A DNA stretch of 64,000 nt from Minisyncoccia bacterium (GCA_965656375.1 CBFHKH010000001.1:772291-836290); one strand, 5' to 3'; positions 18,195-22,017 are shown, counted from the first letter of the stretch. Numbers and translations: made by a program. Notes: generated by a model not told the origin, from the sequence alone.

Positions 18195-18295
18195 GCAACT
18201 GGCAATTAGCCATTAGCTTCTAGCAAAAAAGAGCCTTAATTAAGGCTCTTTTTTGTGCATGGCTAAGAGCTAAAAGCTATATGCGAATGGCTATC
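18195..18295. repeat. Palindromic 'GCAACT-R-GCAATTAGCC' element, copy A (intergenic; its central hairpin is the terminator)
   Basis: Left arm GCAACTGGCAATTAGCCATTAGCTTCTAGCAAA, central hairpin 18225-18254, right arm TGGCTAAGAGCTAAAAGCTAT...GGCTATC. The arms are mutually complementary and similar to copies B and C. Confidence 0.55.
18225..18254. terminator. Rho-independent terminator (AAAAAAGAGCCTTAATTAAGGCTCTTTTTT)
   Basis: Perfect 11-bp stem with A and T flanks, 35 nt after the membrane protein stop. Confidence 0.7.
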
Positions 18296-18303
18296 TAAAA
18301 TGC

Positions 18304-18332
18304 TTGACTTCTCTGGGGCGTTAGTATAGAAT
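18304..18332 (+). promoter_or_regulatory. Candidate rRNA promoter (TTGACT -17- TAGAAT)
   Basis: -35 TTGACT at 18304-09 and -10 TAGAAT/TATAGA around 18325-32, about 310 nt upstream of the 23S 5' end. Confidence 0.4.
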
Positions 18333-18402
18333 ACACCCACGATGTTAATGAATAAAAATCATCCAAATCTGCGGAGAAGCTAAACCTCTACTGGTTTTCC
18401 TT

Positions 18403-18427
18403 TGACCGCTTGAAGCGGTTTTTTTGT
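18403..18427 (+). terminator. Terminator-like hairpin + U-tract in the rRNA leader (attenuator or small transcript end)
   Basis: GACCGCTTGAAGCGGTTTTTTTG, about 95 nt downstream of the candidate promoter. Confidence 0.35.
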
Positions 18428-18923
18428 TGAAAAGGCATCGATATGATATTTGAAAACTGAATGCTGTTCCGACTCGCTGTTATCCTAACAATTTTTGTCA
18501 GGGTCTTTTCATTAGAGTCGGAAACAGAACGCAATGATAATTTAAGTCGTACACCTATCAGAGGAAGCGGTTCCCGAGGATAGGTGCGGTCATCATGTTT
18601 TAAATTTATTTAGAGCATGATGGTTTTCAGATTTCCTAATAGGAAATTAAGAGTATATGGCGGATGCCTAGACTAAAAAAGGCGATGAAAGACGCAGCAT
18701 GGCGGCGATACGTTTCGGGGAGGTGCCTAGCAACCTTTGATCCGGAAATTTCTGAATGGGGAAACCCACGTGTGTAAACCATACGTACGTTCATGCTTGA
18801 CATGAATGAGCATACCCAGGGAAGTAAAACATTTCAGTACCTGGAGGAAAAGAGAAAAATATTTATTTTCTAAGTAGCGGCGAGCGAAAAGGAAAGAGCC
18901 CAAACCGGCCTATCACACTGAAT

Positions 18924-19011
18924 GGGATAGCTTCTAGCACTTAGCTTTTAGCCTGTAGCAAATGCATTTGTATTTTGCTAGTGGCTAGCTGCTAATCGCT
19001 AATTGCTATCC
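18924..19011 (+). repeat. Palindromic 'GCAATTAGCC' element, copy B, forming an expansion hairpin in 23S domain I
   Basis: GGGATAGCTTCTAGCACTTAGCTTTTAGCCTGTAGCAAATGCATTTGTATTTTGCTAGTGGCTAGCTGCTAATCGCTAATTGCTATCC. Flanked by the complementary CCGGCCTATCACACT / AGTGTGATTGGCCGG. Core TAGCAAATGCATTTGTATTTTGCTA is near-identical to copy C. Confidence 0.55.
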
Positions 19012-20743
19012 TTGGTAGTGTGATTGGCCGGGGTTGTAAGGTGACAATGTAGATTTATCTAGAGAAGTTACAAATTGTGTTGTTAGATTAATCTTCTGGA
19101 AAGGAGAGCCGCAGACGGTGATAGCCCGGTGATCGAAAATTTCACAACTTCTTGGTTGTCATTCTTGAGTAACTCAAGACACGAATAGCTTGAGCGAATC
19201 CACCAGAACTAACTGGTAAGGCTAAATACTTTTTTAGATCGATAGTGAACTAGTACCGTGAGGGAAAGGTGAAAAGAACCCCGATGAGGGGAGTGAAATA
19301 GACCTGAAACCATATACTTACAAGGAGTCGGAGCGGGCATTTATGTCCGTCACGGCGTGCCTATTGAAGAATGAGCCAACGAGTTTATCTATGCTGCAGG
19401 CTAAGCTGCTAGAACAGTGGAGCCTTAGGGAAACCGAGTGTTAATAGCGCGAACAATTAATGTAGTATAGATAAGACCCGAAGCGAGGTGAGCTTGCCAT
19501 GAGCAGGATGAACCCTGTCGAAAGATGGGGGGAGGTCCGAACCGGTGACCCGTGCAATAGTCTCGGATGACTTGTGGTAAGGAGTGAAAAGCTAATCGAA
19601 CCTCGTAATAGCTGGTTCTCTCCGAAATAGCTTTAGGGCTAGCGTTGCGTGTTCCTCTTGGGGGTAGAGCACTGGAAGGTTTCGACAGGGAGCAATCTCG
19701 CGACACCTATCAAACTCCGAATACCAAGAGTTAAAACGCAGCAGTTAGGCTATGGGGGCGAAGCTCCATCAGCCAAAAGGGAAACAGCCCAGATCTCTAA
19801 TTAAGGTCCCAAAATTTACGCTAAGTGCAAAACAAGGAGGTGAAATTTCTCTGACAGTGAGGATGTTGGCTTAGAAGCAGCCATCATTTAAAGAAAGCGT
19901 AACAGCTCACTCACTAAGAGATTTCGCACCGAAAATAATCGGGGCTAAGCGTAGTACCGAAATTGAGGGCTTTGGATTTCTTCGGAAATCGCAAAGCGGT
20001 AGGAGAGTATTCCACTCAGCGACGAAGGGAAAGGGGTGACCCATCCTGGAGCGTGTGGAAGTAAGAATGTTGGCACAAGTAACCGCAAGGAAGGTGAGAT
20101 CCCTTCCCGCCGAAAGATTAAGGGTTCCTTGGCAATGGTGATCATCCAAGGGTTAGTCGGTCCTAAGGGGATGGCGAAAGCCGCACCTGATGGGCATAGG
20201 GTTAATATTCCCTAACTTCTGTTGTATCCGATGATAGGACGGAGTGTAGTATACAAAGCTCATTATTGGATTTGAGTTTGTGAGTAAGGGTGCTCTCCAG
20301 GAAAATCCGGAGAGTCGCGTAAAAGCAACACCCAAGCAGAGCATAAATGTGTGGGTTCGCCCATGTAGATTTTATAAAGCACGCTTCCAAGAAAAGTATC
20401 TAAGGTTAATGCAATAGAAACCGTACCGTAAACCGACACAGGTAATCAGGTCGAGTAGACCAAGGCGAACGAGTGAGAGGTCTTCAAGGAACTCGGCAAA
20501 AAAGCAGCCGTAACTTTGGAATAAGGCTTGCCATTCTAAATTTATTTAGTTTGGCCGCAGCGAAAGTATCTCTGGCAACTGTTTATCAAAAACACAGCTC
20601 CCTGCGAACTCGCAAGAGGATGTATAGGGGGTGACGCCTGACCAATGCCAGAAGGTCAACTATCGGTGGTGTGTGGAGCAATCTACATGCTGGCTGATAT
20701 AAGCCCTGGTGAATGTCGGCCGTAACTATAACGGTCCTAAGGT

Positions 20744-20956
20744 TTTGCATTTCAATGAAAGTTGGAATGCAAAGCGGACTAGGACAGGTTATAGAAAACG
20801 ATAAACAATTAATAAGAATATTTCAGGAACCATTTTAAGCTACCTAATAGTACAGTAATGTATTATTAGTCCACACTTGATGAACGAGAGACCAACGTCA
20901 AGCATCCCACCCCGCACGGGAGGATGAAGATAGAGTCCTTCTTAGGGGTACAGAAG
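20744..20956 (+). mobile_element. 213-nt intervening sequence in 23S at the E. coli 1917-equivalent site; putative small ORF-less group I intron
   Basis: Interrupts GGTCCTAAGGT | AGCGAAgTaCCTTGTCGGG. The 5' exon ends in U and the insert ends in G. It contains an S-like element GAAGATAGAGTCC (P7 3' strand) and an upstream GGACTAGG that can pair with it. Confidence 0.5.
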
Positions 20957-21619
20957 AGCGAAGTACCTTGTCGGGTAAGTTCCGACGCGCACGAATGGCG
21001 TAATGACTGGAGAACTGTCTCGAAGACCTGCTCGGTGAAAATACAATACCGGTGAAGATGCCGGTTACCTGCAGATAGACGAAAAGACCCTAGAAGCTTT
21101 ACTGCAGCTTGATATTGAGCATGTTGTTATACTGCGTAGCATAGGTGGGAGAGGTTATACGTACGATTTCGGTTGTGCGGTACTCGTCAGTGAAATACCA
21201 CTCTGTGTGATGACATGTTCTAATCTCTACGGCAAAAACGGAGAGAGACAGTATCTGGTGGGTAGTTTTACTGGGGCGGTATCCTCCTAAAAAGTAACGG
21301 AGGAGTTTATTAAGGTTAGCTAGGCGCGAATGGAAACCGTGCCGATAGTGTAATGGCACAAGCTAGCTTAACTGTAAGACGTACTTGTCGAGCAGATACG
21401 AAAGTAGAACATAGTGAACCGACATTTCGCATTAGATGCGGATGAAGATTAACGGATAAAAGCTACTCTAGGGATAACAGGCTAGTTCCGCCTAAGAGTT
21501 CATATCGACGGCGGAGTTCGGCACCTCGATGTCGGCTCACCTTATCCTGGTGGTGGAGAAGCTGCCAAGGGTTTAGCTGTTCGCTAATTAAAAAGGTACG
21601 CGAGCTGGGTTCAAACCGT

Positions 21620-22017
21620 TGAGTAGCCGTTGGCAACTAGCAATTAGCCTTTAGCAAATGCATTTTGTATTTCGCTAATGGCTAGTAGCTAAACGCTAAC
21701 AGCTATTGAACAGTTTGAACCAATTGAGGAACAAGAAAAAGGAAACTTTTATCTAACTGTTTTAATCTGAGATTAAGACCATGCACACAGTAGTGTGTCA
21801 CGGCGGTGTAGTACAGAAATGTATTATATGAAGTTCACTTATATCGGTGGAACCCCATGCGGGCAATACCGAGGGAAGTCACAAGACGCCCGTAGAGACT
21901 GAATGTGAACCATCTCGCTAAATTTATTTTGAGATGATGTTACAGTCCGATCCCATTAGTAATAATGGTTCTGATAGTTTTACCAAACGCGAAACTATTG
22001 GAAGTAAAACATAGATG
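21620..22017 (+). mobile_element. 398-nt intervening sequence in 23S near the E. coli 2593-equivalent site; putative ORF-less group I intron carrying element copy C
   Basis: Interrupts GAGCTGGGTTCAAACCGT | CGTGAGACAGGTTGGTCTCCTATC. The 5' exon ends in U and the insert ends in G. R-like GTAGAGACTGAATG and S-like ATGTTACAGTCC elements are present. No ORF. Confidence 0.5.
21633..21707 (+). repeat. Palindromic 'GCAACTAGCAATTAGCC' element, copy C (inside the second 23S intervening sequence)
   Basis: GCAACTAGCAATTAGCCTTTAGCAAATGCATTTTGTATTTCGCTAATGGCTAGTAGCTAAACGCTAACAGCTATT. Confidence 0.55.

Follow-up and report, generated by a model that had tools for sequence, protein, structure and literature searches.

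Three TAGC-heptad hairpins at a terminator, a 23S rRNA helix and a putative group I intron in the rRNA locus of a Minisyncoccia bacterium

The DNA examined here, which we call the window, is a stretch of 64,000 nucleotides from a Minisyncoccia bacterium (GCA_965656375.1 CBFHKH010000001.1:772291-836290), and it carries three copies, designated A, B and C, of a palindromic element located in and shortly upstream of a 23S rRNA gene. The 23S gene measures 3673 nt against the 2925 positions of the model and is followed on its 3' side by a 5S gene; no 16S gene was detected in the 64-kb window, the 23S-5S operon being unlinked to 16S over this distance. A promoter-like site precedes the 23S gene, and upstream of this site is the gene for an MscS-like membrane protein (Pfam PF05552). 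The 23S gene is interrupted by two putative group I introns, the boundaries of which were set by comparison with L225, a relative without either intron. Intron 1 is inserted after the U of ...CCUAAGGU, and intron 2, which ends in G, matches Rfam RF00028 with 37.3 bits at 21782-21969, under the gathering score of 50. By alignment to the E. coli sequence, the insertion positions are presumably E. coli 1917 for intron 1 and 2593 for intron 2. L225 itself has a different intron, at the site corresponding to window position 21285/21286. The positions of these features are collected in Table 1.

Table 1. Features of the 23S-5S rRNA locus and refined positions of the three heptad hairpins, in window coordinates.
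Feature	Position	Strand	Remarks
Copy A	18193-18293		around a terminator
Copy A, 5' arm	18193-18224	+	TAGCaac TGGCaat TAGCcat TAGCttc TAGC
Copy A, centre, terminator-like	18225-18254	+	A-run, stem, loop, stem, T-run
Copy A, 3' arm	18262-18293	+	GCTAaga GCTAaaa GCTAtat GCGAatg GCTA
Promoter-like site of the 23S-5S operon	18304-18332	+	TTGACT-17-TAGAAT; conserved in relatives
23S rRNA gene	18637-22309	+	two group I introns
Expanded 23S domain-I hairpin	18905-19030	+	126 nt; Rfam model positions about 274-295
Copy B	18926-19010	+	arms 18928-18959 (five exact TAGC) and 18977-19008 (five exact GCTA)
Copy B, tip	18960-18976	+	AAATGCATTTGTATTTT
Group I intron 1	20744-20956	+	213 nt, no open reading frame, weak Rfam match (22.7 bits)
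Group I intron 2	21620-22017	+	398 nt, no open reading frame, inserted after ...AACCGU
Copy C	21624-21705	+	5' arm 21624-21655, tip 21656-21673 (AAATGCATTTTGTATTTC), 3' arm 21674-21705
5S rRNA gene	22418-22523		3' of 23S

The three copies share one anatomy. In the alignment, the 5' arm shows TAGC at 7-nt intervals, five times in all, and the 3' arm shows GCTA with the same period and number, and each element, 82-101 nt in length with its arms 17-37 nt apart, consists of tandem 7-nt units in two convergent arrays, which is the form of an inverted pair of heptameric simple sequence repeats (SSRs). When the window was searched for TAGCN3TAGCN3TAGC with at most one mismatch, 18 matches were obtained against 0.26 expected from shuffled sequences, and all 18 were inside copies A-C. 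A run detector likewise returned exactly six arms of five units each and nothing further. All three copies are located within 3.5 kb, with none in the other 60 kb of the window, and intron 1 is free of the element. Each copy folds as a long interrupted hairpin, in which TAGC of the 5' arm pairs with GCTA of the 3' arm; the folding energies of A, B and C are -43.6, -66.5 and -41.7 kcal/mol, respectively, with z-scores of -5.4, -9.2 and -7.3 against shuffles. Between the cores, 0-2 of the three spacer bases pair, so that helices of 4-6 bp alternate with small internal loops along the stem. No Rfam family covers the hairpins of the window, and a BLAST search of copy C against phage and plasmid records gave nothing significant.

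Copies B and C are also alike at their tips, which are non-repetitive, 17-18 nt in length, and form a small AU-rich stem-loop of their own. The two tips are near-identical, TAGCAAATGCATTT(T)GTATTT(T/C)GCTA, with about 24 of the 26 positions matching when the flanking units are included; for searches the tip was also written as the pattern AGCAAATGCATTT(N)GTATTT. Because this tip is shared, B and C have a common origin. The arms of A and C are similar as well (2 mismatches in 23 positions and 3 in 21), but this similarity was rejected as a sign of direct descent, TAGC hairpins of unrelated phyla (for example L031 of Acidobacteriota) being equally similar. The arms are low-complexity heptad arrays of a class found across phyla, and similarity of arms alone is therefore no proof of descent. 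What ties copy A to B and C is only that it belongs to this class, stands 630 nt upstream of B and is missing from relatives. A preliminary description of the window had reported one kind of palindromic element present three times, at an intergenic terminator, in a 23S domain-I hairpin and inside a 23S intron, with a near-identical core in B and C. Apart from small shifts in the ends of the copies, the count, the three locations, the common architecture, the shared core and the expected folding of each copy were all confirmed; the 7-nt periodicity makes the common architecture more specific than had been described. The left arm GCAACT.GCAATTAGCC.TTAGC, which it had assigned to all three copies, is present in A and C and not in B.

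Copy A begins 3 nt past the stop codon (18187-18189) of the MscS-like gene and ends 11 nt before the promoter-like site of the operon. Since the promoter is located downstream of it, copy A belongs to the 3' region of the MscS-like gene and precedes the rRNA transcript. Its centre is composed of an A-run (18225-18230), GAGCC (18231-18235), the loop TTAATTAA, GGCTC (18244-18248) and a T-run (18249-18254). With a 5-bp stem including four GC pairs and followed by T6, it has the form of an intrinsic terminator, as had been proposed, even though a simple terminator scan of the window did not list it. Copy A also closes every frame of both strands with TAG stops. The ordinary terminators of this genome already have long stems and are without heptads; those at 9096-9145 and 14601-14628 are perfect or near-perfect palindromes with extended stems (AAAAAACACCCC.. 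/ ..GGGGTGTTTTTT). Another terminator-like hairpin with a T-run (GACCGCTTGAAGCGGTTTTTTT) is located in the rRNA leader at 18404-18420, between the promoter and 23S, and is conserved in the relative L308. The 23S gene is bracketed by two sets of complementary segments, 18441-18467/22339-22365 (27 nt, 93%) and 18620-18645/22299-22324 (26 nt, 88%), which probably constitute a precursor processing stem.

Copy B is the distal part of an expanded domain-I hairpin, which we take to be helix 15 by the usual numbering. In the Rfam alignment, 111 nt of the window stand at this site where the model has a 6-nt loop. In structure, copy B thus resembles an intervening sequence (IVS): an additional stem-loop stands in place of the tip of a conserved 23S helix, and relatives are without it. 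The first hairpin of intron 2 has copy C as its distal portion; at the base of this hairpin, the end of the 5' exon (GGTTCAAAC) pairs with intron nucleotides 21713-21721 (GTTTGAACC).

The same sites were then compared in relatives, which were retrieved through homologues of the flanking protein (78-91% identical to that of the window); the organism names carried by these homologues point to a Patescibacteria (Paceibacteria-type) bacterium. The gene order is the same in nine loci (L122-L126 and L304-L307); L308, L309 and L310 were retrieved as well, and in L309 and L310 a protein-coding open reading frame (ORF), not the rRNA operon, appears to follow the flanking gene. Site B is covered by all nine loci and site C by three of them (L124, L126 and L304), and both introns are common to the relatives whose contigs reach those positions. 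TAGC/GCTA heptad runs were absent from L122-L126 and, at the sites examined, from the loci retrieved later. At site B, the 126 nt of the window correspond to 44-64 nt in relatives, with the same basal stem and a different distal sequence in each. At site C, the 82 nt of the window are matched by a variable short hairpin of about 28 nt. At site A, the relatives have a terminator with ordinary, non-heptad flanks, and in L308, the nearest relative at this site (flanking protein 89% identical), the terminator is plain; the spacer between stop codon and promoter is 113 nt in the window against 75 nt in L308, and varies in length in other relatives. In copy A, heptad arms thus surround a terminator that is present in the relatives too.

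In these relatives the hairpins at the sites that their contigs reach are short, mutually different and unrelated to the copies, and their tips are hypervariable in length. Because the relatives that reach each site have only such hairpins, all three copies are recent: the heptad hairpins postdate the separation of this lineage from relatives whose neighbouring protein is about 90% identical, and all three were built on hairpins that already existed. The preliminary description had viewed the copies as insertions and proposed a check of related genomes for empty sites. The short, unrelated hairpins are the nearest thing to an empty site, and one was found at every site reached. A clean insertion is not what the alignments indicate: hypervariable hairpin tips have been replaced or extended instead, and no flanking direct duplication of a target site was detected in the alignments to relatives.

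Since B and C are known from the present assembly alone, a hairpin or chimeric sequence that entered the rRNA region during assembly was also considered. An independent short-read assembly (Logan ERR15116721) breaks inside A and resumes at window position 22162 (contig L333), covering neither B nor C. The left arm of A is, however, identical in contig L121 of that assembly, B and C are located exactly at helix tips with the host pairing kept, homologues of their tip are present in rRNA genes of other organisms, and the wider class of hairpins is found in isolate genomes as well (Cnuella, Hymenobacter). An assembly artefact is highly improbable on this evidence.

The tip shared by B and C was also found at other sites in Patescibacteria. 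The metagenome scan with the tip gave mostly matches in coding sequence, and the hairpins among the matches listed amount to five loci from three distinct organisms. In L235 (same sequence as L194), the tip occupies the same intron helix as copy C, but the arms consist of AAAGTTCAT-type repeats. In L225 (same sequence as L276), it is inside the different 23S intron at 21285/21286, with arms of AAAGTTTAT repeats. In L263, it is located between the L10 leader and rplJ, with arms of TAGGCnn/GCCTAAA heptads. Two heptad hairpins stand upstream of rplJ in this locus (L263:3-66 and 146-218), one with an AATT core and the other with the TAGGC/GCCTA core and the B/C tip. The more distant Patescibacterium L276 has, in addition, a 156-nt expansion of the 23S helix that holds B (L276:1604-1759); the tip of this expansion is different, and it is made of AAAGTT-type repeats, as is the hairpin inside the 23S intron of the same organism. 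The B/C tip is absent from the TAGC hairpins of other phyla, and in viral contigs its pattern gave coding matches only.

In this Patescibacteria clade, therefore, a conserved hairpin tip with fast-changing repetitive arms is present at several unrelated hairpin sites, and the movement between sites that the preliminary description had proposed is borne out by this recurrence. The strongest argument for copying of sequence from one hairpin tip to another is the presence of the same tip at unrelated sites with other arm repeats. This presence also bears on the alternative that nothing was copied and that each tip was lengthened in place by 7-nt slippage under a shared mutational bias. In many bacteria, no long simple repeats are more over-represented than heptamers, and slippage has been proposed for them (PMC4679880, PMC4692102); the hairpin tips are hypervariable in length among the relatives, and the arms of A and C resemble each other no better than they resemble those of unrelated phyla. 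On the other hand, a tip shared by B, C and the sites of other genomes cannot arise independently, by which such growth is largely refuted for B and C, and the number of units in the wider class peaks at five, whereas slippage predicts a decay. Independent growth in place is thus quite unlikely as an account of the three copies.

The hairpins of the window belong to a class that extends far beyond this genome. As the class pattern we used three exact TAGCnnn units, a gap of 10-40 nt and three exact nnnGCTA units, which A, B and C all match. The pattern was detected in at least 120 loci (L001-L120) in contigs representing one genome per species. Among the matches listed, the carriers include Acidobacteriota (many), Chitinophagaceae, Hymenobacter, Cnuella (isolates included), Gallionellaceae, Planctomycetota, Gemmatimonadota, Deltaproteobacteria, Firmicutes, Chloroflexota, two lineages of the Candidate Phyla Radiation (CPR) and one metagenome-assembled genome of Promethearchaeota. 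In 18 loci of other phyla, the hairpins likewise fall under no Rfam family. One of the Acidobacteriota hairpins (L069:2379-2440) is located in the 16S-tRNA spacer of an rRNA operon, indicating that TAGC hairpins are tolerated in rRNA primary transcripts of other phyla too.

The specificity controls cover viral contigs and one alternative core. In these contigs, TAGC ... GCTA with period 7 was found in 45 stretches (L127-L171), the swapped arrangement of the arms (GCTA ... TAGC) in 4, the TGAC/GTCA core in 6, and TAGC with period 6 or 8 in 0 and 2, respectively; a few of the matches are direct TAGCTA arrays and not hairpins (L145 in the main count, L175 in the swapped one). The core, the period and the arm polarity of the class are each specific. 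The stretches with the alternative core (L176-L181) are heptad hairpins such as GTGACGA x4 ... CCTGTCA x4, in which the core is again a stop codon followed by C. Stop codons and pairing energy were both rejected as the cause of the polarity, since neither stops nor pairs change when the arms are swapped. Integron attC sites were likewise rejected as relatives of the class, their 7-bp cores being of opposite polarity and non-tandem.

Among 171 distinct hairpins of the class, the commonest form has 5+5 units (55 cases), which is the architecture of all three window copies, and the total number of units peaks at 10. The consensus of the unit is n-T-T-A-G-C-T, the core being conserved at 96% or more at A, G and C and at 87% at T. 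Complementarity of the two outer spacer positions is seen in 70% and 85% of unit pairs, that of the middle one in 49% against a null of 43%; the middle base is thus paired only at chance level, and a mismatch recurs every 7 nt. An inner hairpin, such as copy A has, is enclosed by about one fifth of the class. All of the classifiable hairpins (107 of 107) are intergenic, often abutting both flanking ORFs, although this location is in part to be expected, since no reading frame of either strand stays open through a TAG repeated at 7-nt intervals. In L165 and L149, a TAGC hairpin is present in almost every intergenic gap.

A functional RNA module could account for some of these regularities. In one version, copy B would be an IVS that is cut by RNase III to give a fragmented 23S rRNA; in another, the hairpins would be bound on their 5' arm by a protein that recognises UAG(C) at 7-nt intervals, as HutP recognises (UAGnnnn)3, and that thereby controls hairpin formation. 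The constrained core, the period of exactly 7, the five-unit mode and the polarity with UAG on the 5' arm, more than 10 times commoner than the reverse, are in agreement with such a role, as are the mismatch that recurs at the middle spacer position and the replacement of a 23S helix tip by B in the manner of known intervening sequences. The three contexts, however, have different needs (3' untranslated region, mature rRNA and intron), close relatives with the same operon lack the element, a class distributed over bacteria, viral contigs and an archaeon is hard to reconcile with a single dedicated regulator, and no HutP-like domain was found in the window ORFs. We regard a functional module as unlikely. 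A related proposal is that TAGC heptad hairpins are an unrecognised cross-phylum class of prokaryotic repeat, with a dedicated partner that lets them colonise the tips of existing hairpins, those of rRNA helices and self-splicing introns among them. This we put forward as a doubtful possibility, though one to be kept in mind; the partner may be a protein reading UAGC/TAGC every 7 nt, or a hairpin-directed copying mechanism.

Mobility of the classical kind has to be weighed against the same observations. The preliminary description had interpreted the copies as a mobile element resembling MITEs (miniature inverted-repeat transposable elements) or repetitive extragenic palindromic (REP) sequences. 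This interpretation holds in part, since the copies are recent and the tip has moved between sites; the target duplication, the transposase and the dispersal in the window that would go with such an element were not found. In its classical form, a MITE or REP element would have been mobilised in trans by a transposase encoded elsewhere (for example of the Y1/HUH type) and would have landed three times in the rRNA locus. The element is indeed palindromic, about 90 nt in length and non-coding; relatives are without it at the sites that their contigs reach, related genomes have the same tip at several unrelated sites, and the intergenic DNA of other phyla can be dense in TAGC hairpins, up to one per gap as in L165 and L149. 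Yet neither a target-site duplication nor a clean empty site was observed, the tips having been replaced and not interrupted; all three copies are clustered in 3.5 kb; the GTAG-type head of REPs is absent; no transposase-type Pfam domain is present among the window ORFs (1 to 55 kb), and no insertion sequence was found in the window. Furthermore, between genomes the tip is conserved and the arms are variable, the reverse of MITEs, which have conserved ends. Transposition in trans is accordingly an improbable origin for the three copies.

With moderate confidence, we favour a different origin, in which the copies are a non-autonomous, non-coding hairpin repeat that was copied onto existing hairpins, spread locally within the rRNA locus and is carried as a passenger. 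The repeat would have been added as a hairpin to the tip of a 23S surface helix, to the loop end of the first helix of an intron and to the flanks of a terminator, and it would be tolerated at these sites by only lengthening hairpins that point away from the functional core. Template switching at quasi-palindromes and gene conversion are established makers or correctors of inverted repeats. Either could have effected the local spread, as DNA-level copying between hairpins and not by a transposase. Slippage by whole units may then have given the arms their repetitive character, and template switching within the hairpin may have kept them complementary. In rRNA and intron the element is most likely a neutral passenger; at the terminator, copy A would lengthen the stem and might affect termination.

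Several observations weigh against this origin. Neither a polarity from donor to recipient nor a junction signature was found, and the copying mechanism is one that we infer. The copy counts cover 64 kb of a genome of roughly 840 kb, and the element may be dispersed elsewhere in it. The fixed core, period and polarity (45 stretches against 4) and the five-unit mode are features to be expected sooner from selection, or from a partner protein that recognises the repeat, than from neutral slippage, and the chance-level pairing of the middle spacer base is not predicted by simple template switching that corrects palindromes. Lastly, the relation of copy A to B and C is similarity at the level of the class only.

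If copying between hairpins took place as proposed, functional RNA hairpins, in an rRNA helix and a self-splicing intron, can receive a small palindromic repeat at their tips, and so can a terminator. This would provide one concrete route to rRNA expansion segments and to the peripheral extensions of introns in bacteria with very small genomes. The architecture is sharply defined and spans Patescibacteria, Acidobacteriota, Bacteroidota, Planctomycetota and viral contigs. If truly undescribed, the class would join REP, HIP1 and STRR as a widespread prokaryotic repeat, and its origin and role could be tested in cultured Hymenobacter, Cnuella or Chitinophaga.

Some other features of the window are apart from the heptad hairpins. 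A perfect direct repeat of 118 bp is present at 14617-14734 and 15815-15932, spanning in each case a terminator tail, the 5' untranslated region and the first 7 nt (ATGAAAC) of a gene, one of the AICARFT type and the other IMP cyclohydrolase-like. Relatives have other genes at this locus (fused purH, MutS_V, or nothing), and this difference suggests a recent insertion or duplication. An ORF of 2406 aa at 45744-52961 has no Pfam match, and the region 55400-64000 downstream of it is highly repetitive (families D1, D3, D4 and D6) and has the appearance of a giant repeat protein cut off by the window's end.

Among known systems, the nearest in form are the heptameric SSR pairs. In Xanthomonas, GGGAATC arrays consist mostly of four units and form 70-75 convergent pairs per genome (PMC4692102); in Geobacter metallireducens, five tandem MTYCTGA heptanucleotide repeats loop back on the other strand (PMC2700814); and TAACTGA direct repeats are known from Beggiatoaceae, Cyanobacteria and Bacteroidetes (PMC4679880). 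The window elements share with them the 7-nt unit, the small number of units per array, the convergent arrays able to form a stem-loop and the non-coding location. They differ in the TAGC core, which is not described in those papers, in the fixed polarity, in the same core being present across many phyla, in having two copies inside a 23S helix and a group I intron, and in the conserved non-repetitive tip of the Patescibacteria. The literature searched, outside which most subscription journals lie, contains no description of the TAGC heptad hairpin, its polarity or its five-unit mode, which is no proof of novelty, and no repeat common to an rRNA helix, an intron and a terminator was found there.

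REP sequences, bacterial interspersed mosaic elements (BIMEs) and REPINs are 20-40 nt in length, with a GTAG or CGTC head and a linked gene for a REP-associated tyrosine transposase (RAYT) (PMC3116915, PMC3733652, PMC2817692). They are, like the present elements, short non-coding imperfect palindromes, extragenic, often near gene ends and potential RNA hairpins. The window elements, in contrast, have heptad-array arms of 35 nt, no GTAG/GGAG or CGTC head and only three clustered copies in 64 kb, and no RAYT was seen among the window ORFs from 1 to 55 kb. Insertions are common in the 23S genes of CPR bacteria, 77% of which, in the study cited, have insertions of at least 100 nt, mostly introns (PMC9297842; Brown et al. 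2015 as cited there). The window agrees with this picture in its two group I introns and its unlinked 23S-5S operon; insertions in those reports are read as introns, whereas a palindromic repeat common to rRNA helix, intron and terminator is not described in them.

The classical 23S intervening sequences, known for example from Salmonella, Leptospira, Campylobacter and Coxiella, are located in helices 9, 25 or 45 and are excised by RNase III. Copy B resembles them as an extra stem-loop of about 90-130 nt that replaces a 23S helix tip in some lineages and is absent from relatives, but it is located in the hairpin between helices 14 and 16, its repeat family is also present outside rRNA, and its excision is hypothetical. 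The HutP site of the Bacillus hut operon, (UAGnnnn)x3, likewise has, on the 5' half of a hairpin, UAG with a spacing of exactly 7 nt. The resemblance is one of pattern only: HutP is known only from Bacillus and its relatives and acts at one operon, whereas the TAGC class is present in many phyla, and the HutP domain was not found in the window ORFs. Among small palindromes found inside structured or coding genes, the small dispersed repeats (SDR) of Nostoc, reportedly described by Elhai et al. in 2008, and the Rickettsia palindromic elements are very small, non-coding and hairpin-forming; they turn up at sites that are new with respect to close relatives, and functional genes tolerate them because they extend or add a surface hairpin. 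Both differ from the present elements in sequence and taxa and are without TAGC heptads, and we know of no connection between either of them and rRNA helix 15 or the opening helix of a group I intron. We class the elements of the window as a variant of heptameric inverted repeats or REP-like hairpins and of rRNA intervening or expansion sequences.

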